From Stutzerimonas stutzeri (GTDB taxonomy: Bacteria; Pseudomonadota; Gammaproteobacteria; Pseudomonadales; Pseudomonadaceae): a DNA stretch of 64,000 nucleotides. The position numbers and the translations under genes were made by a program. Positions 23,977-37,623 of this stretch are shown in pieces. The notes beneath the pieces were generated by a model. It saw nothing but the letters and a program-made list of their open reading frames with translations. It was not told where the DNA came from and did not search any database. Positions within the stretch are counted from its first letter, which is position 1, and each line of letters begins with the position of its first letter. The stretch is from assembly GCA_024451105.1 (NCBI GenBank), contig JANGEY010000010.1:13006-77005 (forward strand). The letters are read 5' to 3'.

Positions 23977-24887
23977 GCCTTGTGATCGAACGCCAGGGCC
24001 TGCTGGCCAGCCTGCAGGACGCCGGCCGCTTCGGCGTGCGCCACCTCGGCGTCGGCCAGGGCGGCGGCGCCGACTGGATCGCCCTGCGCTGGGCCAACTG
24101 GCTGCTCGGCAATACGCCGGACGCCGCGGTGATCGAGATCACCCTCGGCGGCTTCAGCCTGGTCGCCGAGCAGGACGTCTGCCTGGCCCTGTGCGGCGCC
24201 GACCTGGACGCGCGCCTCGACGACGCGCCGCTCGCCCCCTGGCGCAGCTTCGTCGTGCGCCGCGGCCAGCGCCTCAGCCTCAACCAGGCGCGCCTAGGCG
24301 TGCGCGCCTATCTGGCCGCGCCCGGCGGCTTCGTCGCGCCGCCGGTGCTGGGCAGCTGCGCCACCGTGCTCCGCGAGGGACTCGGCGGCCTGCACGGCGA
24401 CGGCCGGCCGCTGGCGGGCGGCGAGCGCCTGCACTGGCACGGCGGCTCGCCGGCGCCGCGGGCGCTACCGGCCGCGCTGATTCCCGACCTGAGCAGCCAC
24501 GCGCCGCTGGCCGTGGTGCTCGGCGCGCAGATCGGCGACTTCGCCGGGCAGAGCCTGTTCGACGCCTTCAACCGCGACTGGACGGTGGACAACCGCGCCG
24601 ACCGCATGGGCGTGCGCCTGCTCGGCCCGCGCCTGGAGTGCCGGCGCGGCGAGATGATCTCCGAGGGCATCCCGCTGGGTGCCATCCAGGTGCCGGCCGA
24701 CGGCCAGCCCATCGTCCTGCTCAACGACCGCCAGACCATCGGCGGCTACCCGCGCCTCGGCGCGCTGACGCCGCAGGCGCTGGCCCGGCTAGCGCAGTGC
24801 CCGCCCGGCGCGACGCTGCGGCTGGCGCCGCTGGGCCTGGAAGCGGCGCAGCGCCAGCAGCGGACATTGCTGGCGCACTGGCGCTGA
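23973..24887 (+). CDS. pxpC: 5-oxoprolinase subunit C (KipA / allophanate hydrolase subunit 2 family)
   Basis: 304 aa. Its ATGA overlaps the pxpB stop. Confidence 0.85.
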   Translation: MSLVIERQGLLASLQDAGRFGVRHLGVGQGGGADWIALRWANWLLGNTPDAAVIEITLGGFSLVAEQDVCLALCGADLDARLDDAPLAPWRSFVVRRGQRLSLNQARLGVRAYLAAPGGFVAPPVLGSCATVLREGLGGLHGDGRPLAGGERLHWHGGSPAPRALPAALIPDLSSHAPLAVVLGAQIGDFAGQSLFDAFNRDWTVDNRADRMGVRLLGPRLECRRGEMISEGIPLGAIQVPADGQPIVLLNDRQTIGGYPRLGALTPQALARLAQCPPGATLRLAPLGLEAAQRQQRTLLAHWR

Positions 24888-24935
24888 CGATGCAGGCGCC
24901 AGCACCTGGCGGCACCGCCCGCCGGCGCCGGGATG

Positions 24936-25478
24936 TCAGCCGCGCTCGCCGAGCAGCCACTCCACCGGCAGCTCGTGCTGGCCGCGCTCGTCGGTGACGA
25001 ACAGGGTGCCCTCGCTGATCATCACGCTCCAGGAGAGCGAGCGCGGCAGGTCGCGGGCCAGCTCGGCCAGCGGCTCCTGCGGCAGCGCGGCGATGTTGAG
25101 GTTCTTCAGGCTCTTCACCGCGCCCACCACCTTGTCCTGCCACACGCGCAGGCCGCCATAGGCCAGCACGCTGACCCGCTCGGCGCGCCGCGAGCACCAG
25201 GTCATGCGGTCGGCGTCCGGCTGGCCAACCTCGATCCAGTGCAGCACGCGGTCGTCGAGACTCTTCTCCCACAGCGCCGGCTCGTCGACGTCGGACAGGC
25301 CACGGCCGAAGGCGACCTGCTCGTCGTACCACAGCGCGTAGGCCAGCAGGCGCACGGCCAGGCGCTCCTCGGTTTCCGAGGGGTGCTTGGCGACGGTGAA
25401 GCGCAGGTTCTGGTAGACGCCGCGATCGAGGTCGGTGAGGTTGAGTTCGACTTTGTAGGGGGTGGACTGCAGGGCCAT
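24936..25478 (-). CDS. yaeQ: YaeQ-family protein (PD-(D/E)xK-like fold)
   Basis: 180 aa from MALQSTPYKVELNLTDLDRGVYQNLRFTVAKHPSETEERL... matches YaeQ. The ORF-track N-terminal extension starts at GTG without an RBS. Confidence 0.8.
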   Translation of the reverse strand: MALQSTPYKVELNLTDLDRGVYQNLRFTVAKHPSETEERLAVRLLAYALWYDEQVAFGRGLSDVDEPALWEKSLDDRVLHWIEVGQPDADRMTWCSRRAERVSVLAYGGLRVWQDKVVGAVKSLKNLNIAALPQEPLAELARDLPRSLSWSVMISEGTLFVTDERGQHELPVEWLLGERG

Positions 25479-25597
25479 GGGGCGTTCCGGCGGGGATGGA
25501 AAAGGCCGGCAGTGTAACCGAAAGCGCCCGCCGCCCCGCACTCGTGGCGGCTGCGGCAGGCGCGCGGCTCCGCCAGGTTCGGCGGCACCAGCCGTCC

Positions 25598-28500
25598 TCA
25601 GCCCGGCAGCTCCTCGGCCTTGCCATCGCGCTCACGCGCGCGGCGCAGGCCCAGCTCGCGCATGTCGCGGGACAGTTCGTGCAGGTGCTTGTGGATGCGC
25701 AGGCCGATATCGCCCTTCTTCTCGATGGTCTGGATCAGCGGCAGGAAGCTGGCCTGCAGCGACTGCGCCAGTCCCTCGAGCAGCGCGGCGAAGTCCGGCT
25801 GCGGCGGCGCCGCCACTTGGACGCGCGGGCGCTGCTCGGCCAGCGCCTGCAGGCGCGCCAGCAGCTCCGCCCAGGGCACCGGCGCGGCGACGCCGAGGCC
25901 CTGCACGGCGTCGGCGAGGTCGCGCAGCTGGGCGACCACGCGCACGCCGACGTCGGCCTCGCTGCCGCCCATGGCCTTGGCGCGGCGGAAGTCGGCGCGG
26001 ATCTGTTCCCAGCGCGCCGCCTGCTCGGCCGTCAGGTTGCCGCGCAGCTCGGCGAGCTTGAGCAGGTTCTCCTCGGCGCCGGTGGTGAGCAGCTGCGCCT
26101 CACCCTGGTAGTGGTCGGCGATCAGCTGCAGCAGCTCCTCGTCGTTCATCACCGCGCTGATCTTCTCGGCCATCTTGTTCATGTTGCGGTAGCTGCCCTG
26201 CAGCTTGAACGGCGGCTCGCTGCGGTACTGGTCGGCCTGGGCGGCGCTGGCGATGTACTGCTGGTTGACCCGCAGCACCACGTCGCGCACCTGCATCAGG
26301 CGCTGCAGGGTGGCGGTGATCTCGTCCAGCTCGGCGCCGCTGTAGGCGTGCGAGAGCTGGTTGGCGGAGAACTCGCGGCCCTCGGCCCTAGCCACCAGGC
26401 GGTAGAGGTCGGCCATCTCGCGGGTGGCCAGCGGCGCCAGCACCGGGTTGGAGGTCAGCGCGTTCTCGATGTAGCTGAGCGCGAAGGCCTCCTGCATGCC
26501 GCCGAGGGTGTCGCCGAGGTTGTAGATGTCGGCGCGGTTGGCCAGCATGTCGGGAATCCTGAACACCTCGCCGGACTCGGTGTAGGGGTTGCCGGACATC
26601 ACCACGCAGAACTTCTTGCCGCGCATGTCGTAGGTGCGCGTGCGGCCCTTCCACACCCCCTCGATGCGCCGGGTGCCGTCGCACAGCGAGATGAACTTCT
26701 GCAGGAACTCCGGGTGGGTGTGCTGGATGTCGTCGACGTAGAGCATCACGTTGTTGCCCATCTCCAGCGCCAGGTTGAGCTTCTCCAGCTCCTGGCGGGC
26801 GGTGGCGTCGGGCGCCTGCGCCGGGTCGAGCGAGCGCACCTCGTGGCCGAGCGCCGGGCCGTTGATCTTCATGAAGATCAGCCCCAGGCGGTGGGCGACG
26901 TACTCCATCAGGGTGGTCTTGCCGTAGCCGGGCGGCGAGATGAGCATCAACAGGCCCATCAGGTCGCTGCGCTTGTTCTCCCCGGCGCTGCCCATCTGCT
27001 TGGCCAGGTTGTCGCCGATGAAGGTCAGGTAGACGTCGTTGATCAGCTTGTTGCGCACGAAGGAGCTGAGCGGGCGGGCCTTGAACTCGGCCAGGCGCAG
27101 CGCGGCGCGCTCGCGGGCGATCACCGCCTGGCGCAGCGCCTGGTAGCGGGTCAGGCCCGGCAGGTAGTGCTCGCGGTGCGCGCGCAGGCGGGCGAACAGC
27201 TCGTCCAGCGCCAGCTCCAGCCGCTGTTCCTGGATGCGCGGGTGCTCGCCGAGCAGGCCCTCCACCGTGAAGCGCAGGTCGACCTCGGTGACCCGCCGCG
27301 GCAGGTCCTCGCCGAGCAGTTCGAGCGCCGCCGCCTCGGGCGCGTAGGCGGCCAGCGCGGCGAACTCGGCCTGGCCGCACAGGCCGTGCAGCCAGTCGAG
27401 CGCCAGCCTCCACTGCGCCGCCGGACGCTCGCCCAGCCGGGCCAGCGCCTGGCGGTAGTCGTCCCACATGCGCGCCTCGGTCAGCCGCACGCGCAGGGCG
27501 TCCTGCAGCTGGCGGGCGTACTTGCTGAAGGTGAACTCGATGCGCTCGGCGGCCAGCTCCTGCACCAGGTACTCGGCGGCCTCGGCCACCAGCGCCGTGT
27601 CCAGGTCCAGCGGCTGTTCGGCGAGGAAGGCCTGCAGCGCGGTGGCGATCTCGCCCTGCAGGCTGCGCAGGCCGTCGTCGCGGCCGAACAGCTGGCGGAT
27701 GTGCCGGCTGCTGCGCGCGCGCTCCGGCCACTGCGCCGGCTGCTCCCGGTGGCGCAGGCGCTCCCAGCACAGGCAGGCGAAGGCGCGCGGCAGCGGCGCA
27801 TGGCGCAGCAGCCCGGCGCTGGCGGTCAGCGGCAGCAGGCGGGCGAGGATCGCCGCGGCGTCCTGGTCGTGGATGCCCTTCTCGTAGCCTTCCTTGTAGC
27901 GCGGCGCGGCGAACTCGCGCACCGCGCGCACCAGCGCCTCGGGCTGGGCCAGCAGCAGCCTGAGGCGGTCCAGATCGAGGCCGCCCTCGCCGCGCTCGGC
28001 GGCGGCCAGCACCTCACCGGCCAGGTATTCGCCGCGGTACAGCTCGGCCGACTCCGACTCCAGGCTGGCCTGCCAGAACGCACGCAGCGCCTCCAGCTCG
28101 GCATCGACCAGCGGCTCGATGAAGTCGGTGCCGGTCAGGTGCAGGCACAGCTGCTCGCCGCGCGGCAGCAGGGTCAGGTCCAGTTCCTGGCTGTTGACGC
28201 TGAAGCGGTGGCGGCCGAGGCGGATCAGGTTGCCGCCGGCCTCGAACAGCTCGCTCTTGTCGCGCAGGGCGCGCACCGCCTGGTCGCGGGCGCCCTTGAG
28301 ACGCGCCTCGAGGTCGTCGGCCTTGACGCTGTCCTTCAGCTCGCGCAGGCGCTCGGCCAGGTCGCGCAGCTTGAGGATCAGCGGGTCGGCGGCGAAGAAG
28401 GCGTTGAGTTCCTCCATGCTCGCCAGGCGCGCGGTGCGCCGCGCCAGGCTGTCGAGGATGCGCCGCGCCGCCTCCTGCAGGCCCTGGGCGCGGCGCTGGC

Positions 28501-30820
28501 GCTCGTCGAGCAGCGCCTGCTTGTGGGTCTCGAAGGTCTCCAGCAGCTCCTCGCGCTTGGCGAGGATGTCGGCGAGGAACTGCTCCTGCTCGCCGAAGCG
28601 GCTTTCCAGCTCCTCCAGCTGCAGCAGCAGACGCGCCAGCTGCTCGTCGCAGCGCTCGGGGTCGCTGGCCTGGCCGAGGGCGCTGGTGATGCCCTGGCCG
28701 AACAGCTTGAACTGGGCGCCGAACTGGGCGACCGTCTCCGCCGAGCCGAGGCCCTTGCGGCGCTGCTCGGCGCGGGCGCGCGCCTGGTTGAGGCGCGCGT
28801 ACAGCTCGGAGATCGCCTCGACGATGCGCGTGCGCTCGGTGGCGTCGTCGATCGCCAGGCTGGCCATCAGGTTGGACAGCATGTCCAGATCGGCGGCCAT
28901 CGCCTGCAGGCCGGCCAGCGGCTCGGCCAGCTGGGCGACGCTGGCCGCCTGCTGCGCCGCGCCGTCCAGCGCGGCCAGGCGCTCGGCGTAGGGCGCCAGC
29001 GCCCGCTCGCCGGCGAGGAAGCGCGCGGTGGCCGCGGCGACCCACGCCTGGGCGTCGAGCAGCGCCGCCTCCATGGCGTCGATGCGCGCCACGTCGATGT
29101 AGCGGTAGTCGCGGATGGTCAGCAGCAGGCCGCGCTGGGCGGTCAGCGCGTTGAGCGCCTCGACGAAGGCCGCCACCGCGTCCCAGCTGTCGACGTGCAG
29201 GCCGGCGAGCAGCGCCTGCTGGCGGGTCTCGGCCTCGGCCATCACGCGCGCCGACTGCTGGCGGATGCTCTCGACCTTCTCGAACTCGTCGAGCACCCGC
29301 TCGGCGGTGGCGGCGATCTCGCGCAGCAGCGGCGCCAGCTCGCCGAGCTCGGCGGCGCCCAGCCAGTGGTGGGCGTCGAACAGCCGGCGCACGCTCTGGC
29401 ACAGCTGGCCGTAGCGCTGCACCGACACCGCCCGGGCGTCGATCTCGCGGCACAGGTTGCGCAGCTCGGACACCCCGCGCACCAGCTCGGCGTTGCCGAT
29501 GCGGCCGAGGAAGCCGCTGCGCGGCGGCTGGCGGGCGGCGAACTCGGCGCTGGCGAACGGCGTCTGCCAGATCTGCATCGGGTGGATGCGCGTCGGCTCG
29601 GCGCCCTCGGCGGCGAAGATCACCATGCGCCCGTCCTCCAGGCGCGCGTAGCCGTGGCCGAAGATCGGGCTGTGCAGCTGGCGCTCGATCAGGTTGTAGG
29701 TGAACAGCGCGGAGCGGCCCTCCTCCGGCTGGTAGAACACGTAGAGCACGTCCTCGCCGTTGGGCGAGCGCAGCGCGCGCTTGAAGCGCATGCCGGCCAT
29801 CGGCTGGTCGAAGGTCCGGTAGTCGCCGTTCTGCAGGTAGTAGCCGCCGGGGAAGATGATGCCGTGGTCCTCGGGCAGCTGCACGCAGGCCAGGCCGATG
29901 GCGTCGATGCGCTCGACCTGGCGGGTCAGCGTGTTGAACACCAGGTAGCGCCACTGCTCCTCGCGGTACGGCAGCACCTTGAGCAGCAGCAGGCTGCCGA
30001 GACGGGCGAACTCGATCTGCGCATCGTCGAGCGACTGGGTCTTGTCGACCACCGGCTCGCGGTAGATGCCCAGGCCGTCCTCGGTGTTGTTCTCGACCTT
30101 GATGGTCAGGTCGCCGCCGATGGTCTCGACGAACAGGGTGTCGAGGATGTTGACGTGCGGATGGCGGCCGTTGACCGTCATCTCGCGGCTGGTCTTCTGC
30201 CACTCGAAGTCGTAGGGCGCCGGCAGGGCGATGTCGCGCTCGCCGCGGTTGTCGAGGTAGCGCACCTCGCGGCCGTCGACGGAGATCGACCAGCGGAACA
30301 CGCGGATGTCGCTCAGCCGCTCGCCGATCTGGAAGCTGGCCAAGAGCTTGCCGTCGCGCACCACCAGCTGCAGCAGGCGGGTGTTCTTGTAGTAGGTGTA
30401 CAGCTCGCGGAAGTCTTGCACGAAGCTGGCCTGGCCGAGGAAGCTGTCCGCCAGCGGCTGCGGCTCGGCCTCGTAGCCTTCCTCGGTGTGGTTCAGCCGG
30501 TACAGGGAGAATACGTCCTCGACGCGGGTTTCCTGTTTGAGGCCGAGGAACACGTTGTAGCCGAACAGCAGGCAGTCGCCGACCTGGACGATGTCGCGGG
30601 CGATGCAGTTGTTCTCGCTGCGGATGCGCACCCGGCCGAGCACCGCCATCTCGCTGCTGCCGAACTCGGCCAGGCGCTGCGCGTTGAGGGCGTCGACGCC
30701 CTGGCGCAGGCGCTGGCCCTGCTCGGCCAGCCGGCGCTGCAGCACCTCGTAGGCGCCGCCCTCGGCGACCGCCTGATCCACCCTGTCCTGTTCGCGGCTG
30801 GCGTCCTGGGCATCCGACAT
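25598..30820 (-). CDS. giant (1740-aa) multidomain protein: N-terminal beta-rich domain, long coiled-coil/helical middle, C-terminal AAA+ ATPase; 'DNA-repair ATPase'-annotated family, function unknown
   Basis: Single uninterrupted ORF with SD AGGAAG 9 nt upstream of the ATG. Walker A LISPPGYGKTTLMEY is encoded at about 26912-26930. Walker B VMLYVDDIQH is encoded at about 26727-26750. A sensor-like CVVMSGNPYT and a conserved ...DMLANRADIYNLGD motif are also present. Confidence 0.85.
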   Translation of the reverse strand: MSDAQDASREQDRVDQAVAEGGAYEVLQRRLAEQGQRLRQGVDALNAQRLAEFGSSEMAVLGRVRIRSENNCIARDIVQVGDCLLFGYNVFLGLKQETRVEDVFSLYRLNHTEEGYEAEPQPLADSFLGQASFVQDFRELYTYYKNTRLLQLVVRDGKLLASFQIGERLSDIRVFRWSISVDGREVRYLDNRGERDIALPAPYDFEWQKTSREMTVNGRHPHVNILDTLFVETIGGDLTIKVENNTEDGLGIYREPVVDKTQSLDDAQIEFARLGSLLLLKVLPYREEQWRYLVFNTLTRQVERIDAIGLACVQLPEDHGIIFPGGYYLQNGDYRTFDQPMAGMRFKRALRSPNGEDVLYVFYQPEEGRSALFTYNLIERQLHSPIFGHGYARLEDGRMVIFAAEGAEPTRIHPMQIWQTPFASAEFAARQPPRSGFLGRIGNAELVRGVSELRNLCREIDARAVSVQRYGQLCQSVRRLFDAHHWLGAAELGELAPLLREIAATAERVLDEFEKVESIRQQSARVMAEAETRQQALLAGLHVDSWDAVAAFVEALNALTAQRGLLLTIRDYRYIDVARIDAMEAALLDAQAWVAAATARFLAGERALAPYAERLAALDGAAQQAASVAQLAEPLAGLQAMAADLDMLSNLMASLAIDDATERTRIVEAISELYARLNQARARAEQRRKGLGSAETVAQFGAQFKLFGQGITSALGQASDPERCDEQLARLLLQLEELESRFGEQEQFLADILAKREELLETFETHKQALLDERQRRAQGLQEAARRILDSLARRTARLASMEELNAFFAADPLILKLRDLAERLRELKDSVKADDLEARLKGARDQAVRALRDKSELFEAGGNLIRLGRHRFSVNSQELDLTLLPRGEQLCLHLTGTDFIEPLVDAELEALRAFWQASLESESAELYRGEYLAGEVLAAAERGEGGLDLDRLRLLLAQPEALVRAVREFAAPRYKEGYEKGIHDQDAAAILARLLPLTASAGLLRHAPLPRAFACLCWERLRHREQPAQWPERARSSRHIRQLFGRDDGLRSLQGEIATALQAFLAEQPLDLDTALVAEAAEYLVQELAAERIEFTFSKYARQLQDALRVRLTEARMWDDYRQALARLGERPAAQWRLALDWLHGLCGQAEFAALAAYAPEAAALELLGEDLPRRVTEVDLRFTVEGLLGEHPRIQEQRLELALDELFARLRAHREHYLPGLTRYQALRQAVIARERAALRLAEFKARPLSSFVRNKLINDVYLTFIGDNLAKQMGSAGENKRSDLMGLLMLISPPGYGKTTLMEYVAHRLGLIFMKINGPALGHEVRSLDPAQAPDATARQELEKLNLALEMGNNVMLYVDDIQHTHPEFLQKFISLCDGTRRIEGVWKGRTRTYDMRGKKFCVVMSGNPYTESGEVFRIPDMLANRADIYNLGDTLGGMQEAFALSYIENALTSNPVLAPLATREMADLYRLVARAEGREFSANQLSHAYSGAELDEITATLQRLMQVRDVVLRVNQQYIASAAQADQYRSEPPFKLQGSYRNMNKMAEKISAVMNDEELLQLIADHYQGEAQLLTTGAEENLLKLAELRGNLTAEQAARWEQIRADFRRAKAMGGSEADVGVRVVAQLRDLADAVQGLGVAAPVPWAELLARLQALAEQRPRVQVAAPPQPDFAALLEGLAQSLQASFLPLIQTIEKKGDIGLRIHKHLHELSRDMRELGLRRARERDGKAEELPG

Positions 30821-30985
30821 CGTTGTTCTTCCTGAAGATTGCGCGGGAAATGGGGGCTCGCGGTAGGTTCCCCCCCACTCGCGACTGCTCGCGAATGGGG
30901 GGCATCTCCCGCGCAGGCCTCCGTTGGTGGGCTAAAGCCCAGCCTACGGGCGGGCAGCAGGCGGCCCCGGACGGGGCCGCCACGC

Positions 30986-33031
30986 TCAGGCCGGGGTCTT
31001 GTCGACCGCTGCCGGCACGCTCTTGGCCTCGGCGCCCTTGCCGGCCATCAGCCGGCCCAGCACTTCCTGGACCACCGGGCTCTTGCCGACCACGCCCTCG
31101 ATGGCCTTGCCCACCGACAGCGACTTGGCGAAGGAGTTGAAGAAGTCGCCCTCGCCGCCGACGATCTCGATCTTCGCCTTGGACAGCGCGGCGGACAGCA
31201 CCTCGGCCTGCTCCTTGGCGATTTCCTGGTTGGCGGCGATACCGGCCATCGAGGCCTCGAAGTCCTTCTCCAGCTGCATGCGGAACTCCTCGTGCTGGCG
31301 GGCGCTGTCGCTGAGTTCGTCGAGCGCGCCGAACTTCTTGCCCAGGCCCTCGGCCTCGGCATTGAAGCGCTGCAGCAGCACCTCGGCCTCGGCCAGGCCG
31401 AGGTCCTTGGTGGCCTTGGCCTTGGCGCTGCCCAGCTGTTCCTCGCCGCGCGCCTGGGCGCCGAGCTTCTCCTCGAGCACCCGGGCCTCGGCCAGGCCGT
31501 CCTTCTCCTTGGCCGCCGCCTGCGCCTCGATGATCCGCGCCTGGGCCAGGCCCTTCTCCTGCTCGCCGCGGGCCTCGGCGGCCAGCTGTTCGGCCAGCAC
31601 GCGAGCCTCGGCCAGCCCCTCCTTCTCCTTGGCCGCCGCGGTCACCTCGCGCACCCGCGCATCGGCCAGGCCCGGCGCGGCGCGCTCGGCCTCGATGCCC
31701 TCGGCCAGCTTGCGCTTGGCCTCGGCCTGCTTGGCCGCCGCTTCCAGCTCGGCCTGGGCCATGACGTTGACCTCGACCGCCTTGTGCTTGGCGCGCGTCT
31801 CGTCGGCCTCGGCCTGCTTGACCTGGCGCACCAGCTCCTGCTCGGCCTCGGCCTGGGCGTTGAGCACGGCGACCTGCTTGAGCCGTTCGGCCTCGGACAC
31901 CTCGCGCACTTCCTTGATGCGCTCCTCCTCCTGGGCCACGGTCTTCTCCACCGCCACCCGCTCGCGGATCACGTTGGCGATGTTCTTGCGCTGCTCTTCC
32001 AGCGCCTTCTCCTTCTCGATGCGCTGCAGCTCGACCTCGCGCTCGCGGGCGACGATCTCCAGCTCGCGGGCGCGGGTGACCTTCTCCTCCTCGATCACCA
32101 CCGCGCGCTGGCGGTTCTGCTGCGCCACCTCGACCTCGCGCTGGTGGTTCTCGGCGCGGATATCCAGCTCCTGCTGGGTCTGGATGCGCGCCTGCTCGGC
32201 CTTGAGGCGCTCCTCCTCCTGCACCTTGAGGGTCTCGGCCTGCTCGCGGGCGCGCAGGGTGGCGATCTCACGCTGCTGGCGCGCCTCGGCGTCGGCCTGC
32301 TGGCGCTCCAGGGCCAGGGTCGCCTCGCGGGTCTCGACGTTCTTCTTCTTGATCGCCAGTTCCTCGTTGCGCTCCAGGTCGTTGGTGATCACGTTCTGCG
32401 CCGCGGTCAGTTCGGTGATCTTGCGGATGCCCTGGGCGTCGAGGATGTTGGTCGGGTCCAGCGAGCTCTTCGGCGTCTGCTCCAGGTAGTCGATGGCCAC
32501 GTCCTCCAGCACGTAGCCGTTGAGGTCGTTGCCGATCACCTCGACGATGCGGTCGCGGAAGTTCTGCCGCTCCTCGAACAGCTGAACGAAGTCGAAGCGC
32601 TTGCCGACGGTCTTCAGCGCCTCGGAGAACTTGGCGTTGAACAGGTCGTTGACCGCCGCGCGGTCGGAGGCGCGTTCGGCGCCGATGGCCTTGGCCACCT
32701 TGAGCACGTCCTGCTGGGTCTCGTTGACGCGCAGGTAGAAGGCCACGGTGATGTCGGCGCGCAGGTTGTCCTGGCAGATCAGGCCGTCCTTGCCGCGGCG
32801 GTCGATCTCCAGGGTGATCAGGGAGATCTTCATGAACTCCTTCTTGTAGATCACCGGGTAGACCAGCGCGCCGGTGAAGTGCACCTTGGGCTGCGCCGAC
32901 ATGTCGTTGACGATCAGCGCGGTGCCCTGCGGCACCTTGATGTAGAAGGCCTTGAACAGCACGAAGAAACCGAGGATCAGCAGGAAGACCACGCCGACGC
33001 CGGTCGCGAAGGGCATCAGAATCTCGAACAT
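30986..33031 (-). CDS. flotillin-like SPFH/band-7 protein (YqiK-like), unusually long (681 aa)
   Basis: N-terminal TM helix, an SPFH domain, and a very long Glu/Ala/Arg/Lys coiled-coil region containing a 40-aa tandem duplication. Confidence 0.9.
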   Translation of the reverse strand: MFEILMPFATGVGVVFLLILGFFVLFKAFYIKVPQGTALIVNDMSAQPKVHFTGALVYPVIYKKEFMKISLITLEIDRRGKDGLICQDNLRADITVAFYLRVNETQQDVLKVAKAIGAERASDRAAVNDLFNAKFSEALKTVGKRFDFVQLFEERQNFRDRIVEVIGNDLNGYVLEDVAIDYLEQTPKSSLDPTNILDAQGIRKITELTAAQNVITNDLERNEELAIKKKNVETREATLALERQQADAEARQQREIATLRAREQAETLKVQEEERLKAEQARIQTQQELDIRAENHQREVEVAQQNRQRAVVIEEEKVTRARELEIVAREREVELQRIEKEKALEEQRKNIANVIRERVAVEKTVAQEEERIKEVREVSEAERLKQVAVLNAQAEAEQELVRQVKQAEADETRAKHKAVEVNVMAQAELEAAAKQAEAKRKLAEGIEAERAAPGLADARVREVTAAAKEKEGLAEARVLAEQLAAEARGEQEKGLAQARIIEAQAAAKEKDGLAEARVLEEKLGAQARGEEQLGSAKAKATKDLGLAEAEVLLQRFNAEAEGLGKKFGALDELSDSARQHEEFRMQLEKDFEASMAGIAANQEIAKEQAEVLSAALSKAKIEIVGGEGDFFNSFAKSLSVGKAIEGVVGKSPVVQEVLGRLMAGKGAEAKSVPAAVDKTPA

Positions 33032-33061
33032 TTTCTTTTCATCTCCTTATGGACGTACGGC

Positions 33062-33700
33062 TCAGAGGCCCTTGAATTCGTCTTCGCCGACCACCCGGTA
33101 GGCGTGCTCGCCCTCCAGGTACTGCAGCAGCACCACGCGGTCGCCACGGCGGAAGCCCGCCGACTCGTCGGCGCGGATGCGCAGGATCAGCCCGGCGCCC
33201 TGGTCGTCCAGGTCGGCCTCGCCGAAGCGCGGGCTGACCGTGCCGCTGCGCACCGTCGCCACCTGGCCGAGCAGCGAGCGCGCCGAGGGCGCCTCGACCT
33301 TGCGGAACAGCCGGCGCAGCGGCCGGCACAGCGCGCCGGTCAGCGGCACCGCCGGCAGCAGGGCCACCGCCATCACCGCCAGGCCGAGCGGATAGCGCAG
33401 CCAGCCGAGCGGCAGGTGGCGCAGCAGCAGCAACTCGACGAAGTAGCTGGCGAACCAGGCGAAGAACACCAGCAGGGTCAGCACCAGGGTCACCGGCACG
33501 CCACCCAGGCCGAGCTTGAGCAGCAGGCCAGCCAGCCCCTCCAGTTCGAGGCCCTCGCCGTCCGGGCCGAAGTCGCCGTCGAGCACGTCGATCTCGAGAA
33601 TGCCCAGCGCGGCGATCAGCCAGTAGAGGATCGCCAGGCACAGCAGGAAGCTGAACAGCACGGTGGGAAACGCCAGGGCGCTGTGCAGGAAGAGTTCCAT
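33062..33700 (-). CDS. NfeD-like / YqiJ-like inner-membrane protein (flotillin partner)
   Basis: 212 aa with 3-4 N-terminal TM helices and a C-terminal soluble beta-rich (OB-like) domain. It lies 30 nt upstream of the flotillin gene on the same strand. Confidence 0.75.
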   Translation of the reverse strand: MELFLHSALAFPTVLFSFLLCLAILYWLIAALGILEIDVLDGDFGPDGEGLELEGLAGLLLKLGLGGVPVTLVLTLLVFFAWFASYFVELLLLRHLPLGWLRYPLGLAVMAVALLPAVPLTGALCRPLRRLFRKVEAPSARSLLGQVATVRSGTVSPRFGEADLDDQGAGLILRIRADESAGFRRGDRVVLLQYLEGEHAYRVVGEDEFKGL

Positions 33701-33773
33701 CGTGTTCCGTCCGTGAAACCGTAGAGACCGCGCCCAGGCAAGGCCTGGGCGCGGCGAGGATTGCCGGGCAGTC

Positions 33774-34475
33774 TCAGCTTGCGCCCTGCGCCGCCCTGTC
33801 CTTCAGGCGCGCCAGCACGCTGGCGGCGCTGCCGTTGTCGGGAACGATGCCGGCAGCGCGCAGCTTGCTGTCCAGACTCGCCTCCGGCTGCTCGGCGGCC
33901 AGCTCGGCCTCGGCCTCCAGGCGCGCCGCACGTTCGGCCTGGCGCTGCTTGATGCGCTCCAGCGACTCCACCGCGGTGTGCAGCCTGGCCTGCGAGCCGC
34001 CGTGGCGTTGCGCCACCGCCAGCTGGGCGCGCTGCACGCTTTCGGTGGCCTTGACCGTGTCGACCTGCTGCTTGAGACGGCGGATGTGCCCCTCGGCCTG
34101 ACTGACCGCCTGGCGCAGGCGCGCCACGCTGGCGGCGAAACCCGCCGCCTGCTCGCGGTCGGCGGCCAGCTCGGCTTCCAGGGTGGCGATCTTCTCCGCC
34201 ACTTCGGTGGCCAGCGTCTCGTTGTCGGCGGCCAGCGCCTTGAGGGCGTACTGCTCGTACTCGGCGACCTTGACCTCACCCTTGCCCACCCGCTCGCTGG
34301 CCAGTTTCTGCCTGGCCATGATCTGTGCCAGCGCCTCGCGCGACTGGCGCAGCTCCTGGTCTGCGTCGCGGATTTCCTGGTCGAGGATGCGCAGCGCCTG
34401 GCTGTCCACCAGCGCCTCGCCCACCTCGTTGGCGCCGCCGCGCAGGGCGGTCAGCAGCTTGCTCCAGACGTTCAT
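33774..34475 (-). CDS. PspA/IM30 (Vipp1, bacterial ESCRT-III-like) family protein, YjfJ-like
   Basis: 233 aa, all-helical coiled coil starting MNVWSKLLTALRGGANEVGEALVDSQALRILDQEIRDADQ, with PspA-family heptads. The size matches E. coli YjfJ. Its start overlaps the upstream gene's stop (ATGA). Confidence 0.85.
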   Translation of the reverse strand: MNVWSKLLTALRGGANEVGEALVDSQALRILDQEIRDADQELRQSREALAQIMARQKLASERVGKGEVKVAEYEQYALKALAADNETLATEVAEKIATLEAELAADREQAAGFAASVARLRQAVSQAEGHIRRLKQQVDTVKATESVQRAQLAVAQRHGGSQARLHTAVESLERIKQRQAERAARLEAEAELAAEQPEASLDSKLRAAGIVPDNGSAASVLARLKDRAAQGAS

Positions 34476-35104
34476 GCGCGGCTCTCCTCGACAGCGGGAA
34501 GCAGGAACTCCTCGTAGGCCTCGGTGGCCTTGATCACGTTGTCGGCGAGGGTTTCGATCTCGCAGACCACGTCGGCCAGGCTGGCGGCGGCGCTCAGCGC
34601 GCCGAACATCAGGTAGCAGGAGCGACCGTCGGGGAGGGTCTCCAGGCCGATGCTGGAGAGCGGGAACAGCTTGTGGGTGCGCAGCACCTGCTCGTTGAAG
34701 GCCGCCGCATCGCGCACGTCGGCCTGCGGCCAGAGCAGCGCCTCGACCAGGATCTGCTCGCCGACCACGGCGACGAACAGCGGCAGGTCGCCGTAGTCGT
34801 GCAGGGTCAGGTGCAGGCTGGGGTCGGCGCCCTGCAGCAGCTCCATGCTGGCGCGCCCGGCGCGCAGCAGCTCGACGTTGGCCAGCGCTTCGTACAGCTC
34901 GCCGGTGCTCCACAACCTGGGCATGTGCATACCCCCCTCCTCCGTTGAGGCCAAGCCCGCAGCGGGCTGGCGCAGTTTCCGTTCCATGACCGCGAGCGCG
35001 GCGGCGTGCTCGGGCCGAATCCACACTTCCTTCTTCACCAGCCCCTGCTCGCGCAGGCGCTGGCGGTACAGGCGCTGGTAATGGGCCGACGATTTGCTGT
35101 CCAT
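34472..35104 (-). CDS. DUF2170/YjfI-like protein (first gene of module); true start possibly internal (M59/M61)
   Basis: ORF of 210 codons. A strong SD GGAGGAGGGGGG precedes internal ATGs at 34930/34924, giving a 150-152 aa product typical of YjfI. The annotated longest start (35104) has poor SD spacing, yet the N-terminal 58 aa look protein-like. Confidence 0.55.
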   Translation of the reverse strand: MDSKSSAHYQRLYRQRLREQGLVKKEVWIRPEHAAALAVMERKLRQPAAGLASTEEGGMHMPRLWSTGELYEALANVELLRAGRASMELLQGADPSLHLTLHDYGDLPLFVAVVGEQILVEALLWPQADVRDAAAFNEQVLRTHKLFPLSSIGLETLPDGRSCYLMFGALSAAASLADVVCEIETLADNVIKATEAYEEFLLPAVEESRA

Positions 35105-35258
35105 GCCTCGAGGCTAGAGCATCACATGTGTGAAAACCATGTCTTACATGTGGGGTTTTCGCCAAGCCGCGCACAGAATCGACACGAGGCCTCGGTCCCC
35201 TCGCCGCGCCGCGCGCAATCGCCTAGGCTTGGCCATCCCATCGCCCCACGGAGTCGCC

Positions 35259-36458
35259 ATGTCCCTGCCCGTCAAACCCCTCGCCGGCCTCAAGGTCATC
35301 GAGCTCGGCACCCTGATCGCCGGCCCCTTCGCCGCGCGGATCTGCGCCGAGTTCGGCGCCGAAGTGATCAAGATCGAGTCGCCCGACGGCGGCGATCCAC
35401 TGCGCAAGTGGCGCAAGCTGTACGAGGGCACCTCGCTGTGGTGGTTCGTGCAGGCGCGCAACAAGCAGTCGCTGACCCTCAACCTCAAGCACCCCGAGGC
35501 GCGCGAGATCCTCGAACAGCTGGTGACCGAGGCGGACATCGTCATCGAGAACTTCCGTCCCGGCGTGCTGGAGAAGCTCGGCCTCGGCTGGGAACGGCTG
35601 CACGCGCTCAACCCGAAGCTGGTGATGGTACGCCTGTCCGGCTTCGGCCAGAGCGGACCGCTGAAGGACCAGCCGGGTTTCGGCGCGGTCGGCGAGTCGA
35701 TGGGCGGGCTGCGCTACATCACCGGCTTCGCGGACCGCCCGCCGGTACGCACCGGCATCTCCATCGGCGACTCGATCGCCGCGCTGTGGGGGGTGATCGG
35801 CGCGCTGATGGCGCTGCGCCACCGCGAGGTCAACGGCGGCCGCGGCCAGGTGGTCGACGTGGCGCTGTACGAGGCGGTGTTCGCCATGATGGAGAGCCTG
35901 GTGCCGGAGTTCGACGTGTTCGGCTTCATCCGCGAGCGCACCGGCAACATCATGCCCGGCATCACCCCCTCCTCCATCCACACCAGCGCCGACGGCAGGC
36001 ACGTGCAGATCGGCGCCAACGGCGACGCGATCTTCCGGCGCTTCATGCTGGCGATCGGCCGCCACGACCTGGCCGAGGATCCGTCCCTGGCCGACAACGC
36101 CGGGCGCGATGCGCGGCGCGACGAGCTGTACGGGGTGATCGACCGCTGGGTGCAGTCGCTGCCGCTGGATACGGTGCTGGCGGTGCTCGCCCAGGCCGAG
36201 GTACCGGCCAGCCGCATCTACAGCGTCGAGGACATGTTCGGCGACCCGCAGTTCCTCGCCCGCGACATGCTGCAGAAGGCGAAGCTGCCCGATGGCCGGG
36301 AATTTCGCATGCCCGGCATCGTGCCGAAACTCTCCGAGACGCCCGGCGGCACCGAATGGATCGGCCCGCAGCTGGGCGAGCACACCGCGGCGATCCTCGA
36401 ACGGCTGGGCTACGATGCCGGACGCATCGCCGCGCTCAAGGCGGCCGGCGCGGTGTAG
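35259..36458 (+). CDS. CoA-transferase family III (CaiB/BaiF) protein
   Basis: MSLPVKPLAGLKVIELGTLIAGPFAARICAEFGAEVIKIE... is the canonical family III N-terminus. The conserved catalytic Asp region is present. Confidence 0.85.
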   Translation: MSLPVKPLAGLKVIELGTLIAGPFAARICAEFGAEVIKIESPDGGDPLRKWRKLYEGTSLWWFVQARNKQSLTLNLKHPEAREILEQLVTEADIVIENFRPGVLEKLGLGWERLHALNPKLVMVRLSGFGQSGPLKDQPGFGAVGESMGGLRYITGFADRPPVRTGISIGDSIAALWGVIGALMALRHREVNGGRGQVVDVALYEAVFAMMESLVPEFDVFGFIRERTGNIMPGITPSSIHTSADGRHVQIGANGDAIFRRFMLAIGRHDLAEDPSLADNAGRDARRDELYGVIDRWVQSLPLDTVLAVLAQAEVPASRIYSVEDMFGDPQFLARDMLQKAKLPDGREFRMPGIVPKLSETPGGTEWIGPQLGEHTAAILERLGYDAGRIAALKAAGAV

Positions 36459-36459
36459 T

Positions 36460-37623
36460 TCAGGCCAGCCCGGGGCGCGGCTGGCGGCGCACGGTTGACC
36501 AGCCGTGGCAAGCCGGGCACTGCCAGTACAGCTGGCGGGACTGGAAGCCGCAGTGATGGCAGCGGTAGGCCGGCGCGCTGGCCAGCAGACTGGCCAGCGC
36601 CTCGCGCAGCGGCGACAGCTGGGCCCGGCACGCCTCCGGCGCGCGGTCGCGCTGGTAGTCGAGCAGACGCAGCATCAGCGGCAGCGACGGCTGGCGGGCC
36701 AGGCACTGCTGCAGATGCTCGATGGCCGCCGTGCTGCCCAGGCGCTGGGCGATCAGCTCGGCCAAGGCCAGCTGCAGCGGATCGGCGCGCCGGGCGTCGA
36801 AACGCTCGAGGATCGCCCCGAGCACCTGTTCGAGGCGCAAACGCGCCTCGTCGCCTGCGGCGTACTGCAGCAGCTGCGGCAGGGCCTCGGGAAACAGCTC
36901 GGCATCCTGCTCCACCACCTGCAGCAACTGGCGGATGGCCGCATCGGTGCGCCCCGTCTGCCAGTCGAGGCGGGCGAGGATCAGGCTGGCGCGCACGCAG
37001 GCCGGATCGCGACGCAGCGCGCGCTGCAGCAGCGGCCGCGCCGCCTCGGCCTCGCGTCGACGCAACTGCTGCTCGGCCAGCTCGCAATGGTAGTGGGCGG
37101 CGGCCACCCGCACGGCCGGCTCCAGCTCGCTGAGGCGGATGCCGACCTCTACGGCCTTCTGCCACTCGCGCTCGCGCTCATAGATGCGCTGCAGGCTGCG
37201 CAGGGCCTGCGGGGTGACCGCGGCGGCGCTGTCGACCAGATTCTGCAGCAGGGGTTCGGCACGCGACAGCTCGCCGGCGGAGAGGAAGTCGTTGGCCAGC
37301 TCGAGCTGCGCGCGCTCCTGCTGGGGACGCCCCAGCTCGGGGCGGGTCAGCAGGTTCTGGTGCACCTCGGTGGCCTTGGCCAGCTCGCCGCGCAGGCGGA
37401 ACTGGCGACCGACGCCGAGGTGAGTCTCGAAGGTCTCGTTGCTGACCTCCAGCGCCTCGACCAGGCGCTGCAGCACGGCGTCGGGCTGCTCGTCGAGCAG
37501 ATGGTTGTTGCTGATCGCCACGGCGGCACGACGCTGCAACAGCGGCTGGCGCTCCCGCCGCCCGAGCCACCAGCCACAGCCGATGGCCAGCATGAACAGG
37601 ACGAGCCAGAGCAGCTCGTGCAT
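36460..37623 (-). CDS. lapB: lipopolysaccharide assembly protein B (TPR + C-terminal rubredoxin-like CxxC pairs)
   Basis: N-terminal TM helix, TPR repeats, and C-terminal CHHCGF...CPACHGW metal-binding motifs, as in LapB/YciM. Confidence 0.85.
   Translation of the reverse strand: MHELLWLVLFMLAIGCGWWLGRRERQPLLQRRAAVAISNNHLLDEQPDAVLQRLVEALEVSNETFETHLGVGRQFRLRGELAKATEVHQNLLTRPELGRPQQERAQLELANDFLSAGELSRAEPLLQNLVDSAAAVTPQALRSLQRIYEREREWQKAVEVGIRLSELEPAVRVAAAHYHCELAEQQLRRREAEAARPLLQRALRRDPACVRASLILARLDWQTGRTDAAIRQLLQVVEQDAELFPEALPQLLQYAAGDEARLRLEQVLGAILERFDARRADPLQLALAELIAQRLGSTAAIEHLQQCLARQPSLPLMLRLLDYQRDRAPEACRAQLSPLREALASLLASAPAYRCHHCGFQSRQLYWQCPACHGWSTVRRQPRPGLA

Follow-up and report, generated by a model that had tools for sequence, protein, structure and literature searches.

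BacE of Stutzerimonas stutzeri: a giant AAA+ protein of MoxR class encoded with a flotillin and an NfeD-like protein

The open reading frame at positions 25598..30820 (- strand) of a 64,000-nucleotide stretch of Stutzerimonas stutzeri DNA (contig JANGEY010000010.1; hereafter the window) encodes a 1740 amino acid protein that is the S. stutzeri orthologue of Pseudomonas aeruginosa BacE (PA3728). The gene is the last of a bacA-bacB-bacC-bacD-bacE envelope-stress operon in the window, and the core unit of the system consists of an NfeD-like protein, a flotillin and BacE. As a joint claim, it is highly probable that the protein is a BacE orthologue, carries an AAA+ module of MoxR class, belongs to a membrane-stress module and does not act in DNA repair. 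The best explanation of the data goes further and combines bac-operon orthology with a role as a motor that remodels a flotillin/NfeD scaffold; so combined, it is favoured only somewhat. The existence of BacE, its architecture and its flotillin/PspA context are already known from the literature, and the value of the present work lies in consolidation and in a sharper testable mechanism, not in discovery.

The bacE open reading frame

The open reading frame starts with an ATG codon and its stop codon lies inside the coordinates given above. An AGGAAG Shine-Dalgarno sequence is found approximately 8 nt 5′ of the ATG. The G+C fraction at the three codon positions is 0.74/0.42/0.98 in its own frame, and the G+C content of the window is about 69%. 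The 1740 aa protein that an earlier note, made from the letters of this DNA alone, had placed here is thus real, as the third-position value (GC3 0.98) indicates. There is also an antisense open reading frame on the + strand (25496..30835, 1779 aa), which spans the whole of bacE. Its codon-position G+C is 0.97/0.43/0.74 and its translation is an Ala/Gly/Arg/Leu-rich nonsense sequence; because of this mirrored composition and the nonsense translation it is regarded as an antisense shadow of bacE. Shadow reading frames of such length are typical of DNA of high G+C content, and a naive gene caller could mis-call this one.

The translated sequence has thousands of homologues, and its identity to an NCBI entry from P. 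stutzeri named "DNA repair ATPase" is 100%. It displays 77% identity over 99% coverage with the P. aeruginosa orthologue PA3728/PA14_16190, and the gene order, bacA to bacE and then recJ, agrees with that of PA3732 to PA3725. PA14_16190 was named bacE in 2024 (Wallart et al. 2024, PMC10948618). PA3728 is among the genes recurrently mutated in P. aeruginosa isolates from cystic fibrosis (PMC8190622).

Analysis by Pfam shows DUF3686 at aa positions 38–485 (E-value = 5e-206), DUF7902 at positions 607–689 and weak matches to AAA_5 and AAA. DUF3686 is described in Pfam as "ATPase involved in DNA repair"; a full-text literature search for "DUF3686" found no paper. Scans of BacE with NCBIfam and PADLOC gave nothing significant (the PADLOC models LmuB, in the helical region, and mad8 scored E = 3e-4 and E = 0.63). 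BacE has no hydrophobic segment (maximum KD19 value 1.40), whereas BacC has three and BacD has one. BacE is therefore soluble and presumably cytoplasmic.

The bac operon

The five bac genes are co-directional, with junctions that range from a 4-nt overlap to a 165-nt gap. bacA (34472..35104, - strand) encodes a DUF2170/CesT-Tir-like chaperone-regulator (PF09938, E = 2e-50), which scores above the cut-off of the NCBIfam equivalog "biofilm formation regulator BacA" (E = 3.6e-98). bacB (33774..34475, - strand) encodes a PspA/IM30 protein (PF04012, E = 3.9e-51). The stop codon of bacA and the start codon of bacB overlap by 4 nt (ATGA, 34472..34475), which implies translational coupling of this chaperone-PspA dyad.

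bacC (33062..33700, - strand) encodes a 212 aa membrane protein with three hydrophobic segments that resembles a short NfeD/YqiJ protein, and bacD (30986..33031, - strand) encodes a 681 aa flotillin/SPFH protein with one N-terminal transmembrane segment at positions 1–35. Neither BacC nor BacD gives a Pfam or NCBIfam match, even at E ≤ 10. They were identified by direct BLASTP comparison with E. coli K-12 YqiJ (E = 8e-5 for BacC) and YqiK (28% identity over 453 aa, E = 7e-40 for BacD). The BacD-type flotillin is thus invisible to standard domain annotation, and the upstream genes in distant loci are likewise without Pfam matches. The similarity to the corresponding neighbours of bacE in a Planctomycetota genome is closer: BacD displays 46% identity, and the E-value for BacC is 3e-11. 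The yqiJK genes of E. coli are homologous to bacC-bacD and co-linear with them, but there is no BacE beside yqiJK, and YqiK, at 28% identity to BacD, is more distant than the flotillins linked to BacE across phyla (45%–50%).

The spacer between bacD and bacE (30821..30985, - strand) is 165 nt long and displays three GC-rich hairpins, with a minimum free energy of -104.9 kcal/mol (z = -6.8 relative to shuffled sequences). It is not repeated within the window, and Rfam gives only chance sub-threshold matches. In other genomes the spacer has a median length of 149 nt and is structured (z < -3) in 20 of 59 cases. It may set the expression ratio of flotillin to ATPase.

In P. aeruginosa, bacA to PA14_16200 form one transcript by reverse-transcription PCR, and the bac products accumulate together, 6- to 13-fold, in a bacA::Tn mutant (Wallart et al. 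2024, PMC10948618). PA3728–PA3732 are also induced together in all phage-infected samples of one study (PMC12041424) and in the proteome of a stressed mutant (PMC13637947). A 2026 survey refers to PA14_16180 as "PaFlo3" and to PA14_16160 as a "short NfeD" (PMC13086221). A computational account of the BacE-type architecture and its flotillin/PspA context has been given by Ravi et al. (2024); the association of flotillin with BacE-type proteins is a published prediction (PMC11237479).

Genomic context of bacE in other species

Most of the functional information on BacE resides in its neighbour genes. Relatives of BacE are found in at least 589 species when one genome is taken per species, and 80 of these loci were kept and searched by tblastn with the proteins of the window. 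A flotillin gene lies directly upstream of bacE in 77 of the 80, and an NfeD-like gene is present in 74; the exceptions in both cases are cut contigs. BacA and PspA are found in 48 loci in the same order as in the window, P. paraeruginosa included. yaeQ (16 loci) and recJ (14 loci) are neighbours in pseudomonads only and at variable distances.

The linkage extends to distant phyla. In six of seven distant genomes (a Planctomycetota, two Verrucomicrobiota, two Bacteroidota and a Sumerlaeota) a BacD-type flotillin, 45%–50% identical, is immediately upstream of the bacE homologue, and mostly there is also a YqiJ-like gene of 213–241 aa. The two proteins, flotillin and ATPase, have therefore diverged in parallel, which is what physical partners would be expected to do. 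A BacD-type flotillin and an NfeD-like protein are the obligate genomic partners of BacE, while PspA, rhomboid, PLD and TelA proteins are variable accessories. That a dedicated flotillin subtype has diverged together with BacE is new to the present analysis.

A rhomboid gene overlaps the bacE stop codon on the same strand in 26 loci, and a PLD/HKD-like gene lies downstream of bacE, also on the same strand, in 33–45 loci. In 18–20 loci, from Xanthomonadales without BacA and PspA, a 253 aa coiled-coil protein and TelA are encoded downstream. Since the TelA pair is found exactly where BacA and PspA are absent upstream, a functional substitution of TelA for PspA is suggested in Xanthomonadales; this too is an addition of the present analysis. 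The rhomboid, PLD, 253 aa coiled-coil and TelA proteins have no tblastn match in the 64-kb window.

A third addition concerns bacF. In P. paraeruginosa a PLD-like gene (locus L008, 13258–13941) is located between bacE and yaeQ, which makes the PLD protein the most likely identity of the published BacF (PA14_16200). YaeQ was considered as BacF and rejected, as the PLD-like gene intervenes. On this reading the S. stutzeri locus has no BacF. Compared with bacABCDEF of P. aeruginosa, it shares full-length BacE orthology, bacA-bacD upstream and the neighbourhood to recJ, but it lacks the PLD/HKD-like gene after bacE (the probable bacF) as well as the rhomboid gene of many pseudomonads.

Two distant loci display further genes. 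In a Verrucomicrobiota genome (locus L084, 151–2750) PspA and a separate 559 aa AAA protein are encoded divergently beside the NfeD-flotillin-BacE triad. In Hymenobacter (locus L085, 11094–13801) the triad occurs with PspA and is followed by defence-like GmrSD_N and AAA_23 genes.

The Hymenobacter arrangement is one of the observations that could place the flotillin-NfeD-BacE module, together with PLD and rhomboid proteins, in anti-phage or abortive-infection defence triggered by membrane perturbation. PA3728–PA3732 are up in all phage-infected samples, the accessory PLD-like and rhomboid genes resemble effector modules, and large ATPases are common among defence systems. However, ordinary Psp stress responses are defined by their induction by phage, PADLOC gives no significant match, and neither PLD nor rhomboid accompanies the copy in the window. 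In addition, bacE is a syntenic core gene with 66%–79% identity across pseudomonads and Xanthomonadales and is nearly free of insertions and deletions, unlike the patchy and fast-evolving islands in which defence genes reside. A defence function is improbable.

The AAA+ module

The C-terminal region was analyzed in an alignment of 239 BacE homologues from at least five phyla and in two overlapping AlphaFold2 models, which were made from 45-sequence alignments (28%–78% identity) and have mean predicted local distance difference test (pLDDT) values of 83.7 for residues 1–950 and 84.4 for residues 930–1740. The AAA+ alpha/beta core is at residues 1258–1434 (26519..27049, - strand). Walker A, SPPGYGKTT (residues 1295–1303; 26912..26938, - strand), contains K1301, with GYGKT beginning at 1298, and follows a predicted strand at 1289–1294. 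Walker B, MLYVDDIQH (residues 1359–1367; 26720..26746, - strand), contains D1363 and D1364, with YVDD beginning at 1361, and is on a strand at 1358–1363. The two motifs are 60 residues apart within this single C-terminal alpha/beta domain. A beta-hairpin at 1385–1398 (strands 1385–1390 and 1393–1398) is found in the model between alpha3 and beta4, in the pre-sensor-1 position.

The segment at residues 1408–1436 (26513..26599, - strand) contains N1411 (GNPYTESG) and R1429 (PDMLANRADIYNLG); the NRADIY motif begins at residue 1428. In the model N1411 comes directly after the strand at 1404–1409 (the end of beta4) and R1429 directly before the strand at 1430–1434 (beta5). By AAA+ topology these residues are candidates for sensor-1 and for the arginine finger, respectively. 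The predicted helical lid and post-lid helices follow at residues 1443–1616 (25973..26494, - strand) and include QGSYR, with R1545 as candidate sensor 2.

The sequences SPPGYGKT, D1363-D1364-I-Q-H, G-N1411-P..E..G, P-D-M-L-x-N-R1429-x-D-x-Y-N-L-G and Q-G-S-Y-R1545 are invariant in 239/239 homologues. Because of this invariance the module is probably catalytically active. The second acidic residue of Walker B is Asp in 239/239, i.e. the pair is always DD and never DE. The motifs GYGKT, YVDD and NRADIY were correctly placed in the earlier note, and its assignment of the protein to the AAA+ rather than the SMC/ABC type holds, as both Walker motifs lie in one domain and AAA_5 spans the core.

BacE displays the Walker A, Walker B and sensor-1/arginine finger elements of the AAA+ superfamily, and its core and lid are superposable on solved AAA+ structures. 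The nearest of these are the MoxR ATPases CbbQ and NorQ, followed by midasin and dynein, and AAA_5 is the sole Pfam model that aligns over the whole core. Among AAA+ clades, then, both structural and profile similarity are closest to MoxR/AAA_5. The BacE patterns hhhhD[DE]I[NQ][RH] and N-P-x-x-E-x-G...[LI]-P-[DE]-x-x-L-x-R resemble DEINR and QNPxExEG..LPEAxLDR of MoxR proteins, a resemblance which we take to be a lead, not a test.

By sequence the module stands apart. Searches of the PDB by phmmer and with profiles, using the whole protein, the family and the AAA module, gave matches to p97 and RuvB over the Walker A segment only (approximately 40–60 residues). A HMMER search of 1.84 billion cluster representatives with residues 1180–1740 found 955 at E ≤ 1e-3 and 412 at E ≤ 1e-30, and because so few match, the module appears isolated in sequence from mainstream AAA+ families. 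In its presumed mode of working BacE is like a MoxR/dynein-class AAA+ remodeller, but it is not a canonical member of the MoxR family. Its placement beside CbbQ and NorQ and the invariance of the DD pair are additions of the present analysis.

The form of the module bears directly on the database name. As an SMC/Rad50/SbcC-like DNA repair ATPase, BacE would agree with the NCBI name and the DUF3686 description, with the weak PADLOC match of its helical region to the SMC-like LmuB (E = 3e-4), with recJ 3 kb downstream and with the PLD/Nuc-like gene that follows bacE in many genomes. In an SMC protein, however, Walker A is N-terminal, Walker B and the signature motif are C-terminal, and a long antiparallel coiled coil with a hinge or zinc hook lies between them, whereas in BacE both Walker motifs are in one C-terminal domain. 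Pfam and NCBIfam give no SMC_N, AAA_23 or Rad50 match and there is no ABC signature. The helical region forms bundles in place of the antiparallel arm of SMC proteins. The conserved partners are all membrane proteins, while recJ and yaeQ adjoin in pseudomonads only and at variable distance. BacE is certainly not an SMC/Rad50-type ATPase, and the chance that the name is right about DNA repair is close to nil. The doubt that the earlier note cast on this label was well placed, as no support for the label was found.

The AAA+ class and the gene context together bear on another reading, in which BacE is a Vps4-like disassemblase of the PspA/IM30 polymer, with flotillin and NfeD serving only as a membrane platform. 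PspA and its DUF2170 chaperone are encoded in the same operon and in 48 of the 80 loci, PspA adjoins in Hymenobacter and in one Verrucomicrobiota genome, pspA-type and bacE genes are co-induced, and for AAA+ proteins associated with PspA, ESCRT-like functions have been put forward by Ravi et al. On the other hand, the flotillin-BacE pair is kept without adjacent PspA in 32 of the 80 loci (Stenotrophomonas, Xanthomonas, Xenorhabdus, Longimicrobium and others) and in four of the seven distant genomes. MoxR-class structures score clearly above Vps4 (15.4 vs 10.6), no MIT domain was detected in BacE by the Pfam scan, and the Verrucomicrobiota locus has its separate 559 aa AAA protein beside PspA. 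This PspA-directed role is unlikely, although it retains some weight.

The N-terminal arm

Upstream of the ATPase, the models show an arm that begins with a helix (residues 23–53) and a propeller-like all-beta domain at residues 59–419 (29564..30646, - strand). The latter forms the core of DUF3686 and has approximately 28 strands, or about seven blades by strand count. It is followed by 11 helices of 20–51 aa at residues 443–858 (28247..29494, - strand), which form spectrin-like bundles and include DUF7902 (607–689). A small conserved beta domain is predicted at residues 865–903 (28112..28228, - strand), with invariant G869, F873, N876 and H894. A second all-helical domain at residues 930–1168 (27317..28033, - strand; pLDDT > 90) is less conserved and contains hot spots of insertion and deletion, although Y979, G982, H984, D985 and D987 are invariant. 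A small beta sheet (1175–1204) and a long helix (1205–1241) lead to the AAA+ core. At the other end of the protein there is a variable helical C-terminal tail of low confidence (residues 1640–1740; 25601..25903, - strand), with a gap fraction of 0.3–0.55, large insertions and pLDDT of 40–80.

The N-terminal region had been described as beta-rich and as a possible propeller. The strand count and the extent of DUF3686 (38–485) bear out the first, and structure comparison supports the second: Foldseek with the beta domain gives propeller proteins exclusively, at probability 0.9–1.0 and template modelling (TM) scores of ≤ 0.32. Because all matches are propellers but the scores are low, the domain is most readily described as propeller-like, with no close solved relative. 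The center had been described as about 700 aa of coiled coil or helix with long heptad stretches. It is helical, but a continuous coiled coil is rejected; a crude heptad scan finds only stretches of approximately 40 residues, and the models show the 11-helix bundles, the second helical domain and two small beta elements.

The architecture of the family is fixed. Full-length members are 1,590–2,036 aa long and the ATPase is always at about positions 1140–1650. In a homologue search seeded from Bacteroidota, the three-Pfam architecture is kept in Bacteroidota, Verrucomicrobiota, Planctomycetota and Sumerlaeota. In the 239-sequence alignment, residues 21–940 and 1180–1640 are nearly free of gaps across phyla; insertions and deletions cluster near 945, at 1025–1075 and 1145–1165, and after 1640. 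This near-absence of length change speaks for a rigid machine and against a spacer that is flexible. The scarcity of insertions and deletions over about 1,400 residues and across phyla is a further point new to this analysis.

The beta domain also displays near-invariant polar residues in five phyla, i.e. H222, D227, E232, D237, K241, E243, N245, T246, N354, E356, D357, H413 and Q416, along with the sequences LPEDHG and NGED. The polar clusters are at residues 221–246, 312–332, 352–357 and 410–421 (window positions ~29558–30160). These residues exceed what a passive scaffold would need, and the conservation pattern suggests a specific ligand-binding or catalytic site on the propeller-like domain.

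A long, rigid arm free of insertions and deletions could also indicate that BacE is chiefly a lattice or coat-like structural protein in the style of clathrin, IFT-A or nucleoporins, the AAA+ module being only an oligomerisation hub. The longest Foldseek alignments are to proteins with a propeller plus helical solenoid (IFT-A, Nup, clathrin terminal domain plus linker), and flotillins themselves form domes. However, the TM-scores of 0.07–0.19 denote likeness in the order of secondary structure only, the long helices form bundles of spectrin type rather than a solenoid, and the catalytic residues are absolutely invariant, which points to an enzyme rather than a passive hub. A coat-like role is about as improbable as defence, perhaps slightly more so.

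Other features of the region

A sigma-54 promoter has been proposed for P. aeruginosa bacA, whereas the upstream region of S. stutzeri bacA has no match to the consensus: a search for TGGCAC-N5-TTGCW with up to two mismatches found no site 5′ of bacA and no enrichment. A sigma-70-like scan found nothing in 24800–35400. The 154-nt divergent intergenic region between bacA and a CoA-transferase gene (35105..35258) contains ACATGT-type inverted repeats (CACATGTAAGACATG...CACACATGTG), which could be a regulator site.

yaeQ (24936..25478, - strand) follows bacE after a 119-nt spacer, in which there are a GC-rich hairpin and a short run of T residues. Its true start is the ATG at 25478, while the list of open reading frames has a GTG at 25541. 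A LapB/YciM-like gene (36460..37623, - strand), whose product combines TPR repeats with a rubredoxin zinc ribbon of LapB type at the C-terminus, is located 1.3 kb 5′ of the bac operon, beyond the divergent CoA-transferase gene. It encodes an envelope/LPS assembly regulator, and its position near the bac operon is probably unrelated synteny.

Proposed function and comparison with known systems

SPFH proteins build large membrane-attached domes, and flotillins are among the proteins that form them. MoxR ATPases are hexameric remodelling chaperones. In the mechanism proposed here, BacE would oligomerise through its AAA+ modules, presumably as a hexameric ring. The propeller-tipped rigid arms (about 1,240 residues) would take hold of the flotillin/NfeD assembly in the cytoplasm, or of its clients, and ATP would be spent to assemble, open or disassemble the membrane scaffold under inner-membrane stress. 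PspA (with its DUF2170 chaperone), rhomboid, PLD or TelA proteins would act as lineage-specific helpers. BacE would then be to flotillin what FtsH is to the HflK/C cages that enclose it, or Vps4 to ESCRT-III. The proposal is made because of the MoxR-class module, the rigid propeller-ended arm, the linkage to flotillin and NfeD and the hexameric nature of MoxR chaperones; from these we infer the oligomeric state, the physical contact with flotillin and NfeD-like protein and the direction of remodelling. That BacE remodels the flotillin/NfeD scaffold by this specific mechanism is a tentative claim, with chances that approach even. In a more elaborate form, BacE, flotillin and NfeD-like protein would be a self-contained ATP-powered machine, in which six arms on a hexameric hub open, close or strip flotillin domes and hand damaged patches to PspA where it is present. 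This form is quite unlikely.

Several observations weigh against the assignment and the mechanism. The predicted TM-score of the models is about 0.6, so the arrangement of domains relative to one another is uncertain. Sequence searches cannot tell the AAA+ clade of BacE. The helix-2 beta-hairpin insert of MoxR proteins is not seen in the AlphaFold2 model, where 18 residues, predicted as a loop that contains two short turns of helix, join beta2 (1315–1320) and alpha2 (1339–1354). A gene for a MoxR-type VWA partner is absent among the conserved neighbours in the window and in the 80 and the seven distant loci. With DD in place of DE in Walker B, ATP might be hydrolysed slowly or the protein might behave as a switch. 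The bacE homologue of Aureibacter (Bacteroidota) has no flotillin within 7 kb, and deletion of paFlo3 in PA14 lowers biofilm by only about 20% and gives no strong phenotype (PMC13086221). A literature search gave no paper that assigns a biochemical activity or structure to BacE. The earlier view of the family as essentially uncharacterised stands for the biochemistry, but BacE has been named, its operon is co-transcribed (PMC10948618) and its architecture and context are published. The scheme of sensor, coiled-coil lever and ATPase that went with that view remains speculation.

Comparison with known systems shows where BacE differs. It is similar to MoxR proteins (CbbQ, NorQ, RavA) in the whole-core AAA_5 match and the pre-sensor-1 beta-hairpin. 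MoxR proteins, however, are about 300–500 aa in length and have a separate VWA/MIDAS partner, while BacE, at 1,740 aa, is four to five times larger, as an arm of about 1,240 residues is fused to the module, and has no VWA gene in its conserved neighbourhood, DD in Walker B and no visible helix-2 hairpin. Dynein and midasin (Rea1) have six AAA+ modules per chain, and BacE has one; BacE would therefore have to oligomerise. Also unlike dynein and midasin, it has no stalk/MTBD or MIDAS domain.

HflK/C-FtsH is a precedent for an SPFH scaffold with a dedicated AAA+ hexamer at the bacterial inner membrane. FtsH is a membrane-anchored AAA protease of the classical clade inside a periplasm-facing cage, whereas BacE is soluble, of MoxR class, without a protease domain and with a partner of flotillin-type SPFH, which has a single N-terminal hydrophobic segment. 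With Vps4/ESCRT-III, BacE shares the properties of an AAA+ protein linked in the genome to PspA, a member of the ESCRT-III superfamily, and of a predicted remodeller of membrane-bound polymers.

Significance

Thousands of database entries carry the name "DNA repair ATPase"; this name misleads, and its replacement is warranted. The BacE family comprises large enzymes of 1,600–2,000 residues that have co-diverged with one flotillin subtype in Proteobacteria, Bacteroidota, Planctomycetota, Verrucomicrobiota and Sumerlaeota. It is an obvious candidate for the motor in the opening or recycling of flotillin/SPFH domes, and for the ATPase of PspA/ESCRT-III-like systems. If the more elaborate form of the mechanism is true, BacE and its partners would be the bacterial equivalent of coat/uncoating or ESCRT-III/Vps4 cycles, and an SPFH scaffold with a non-proteolytic AAA+ remodeller of its own would be known for the first time.

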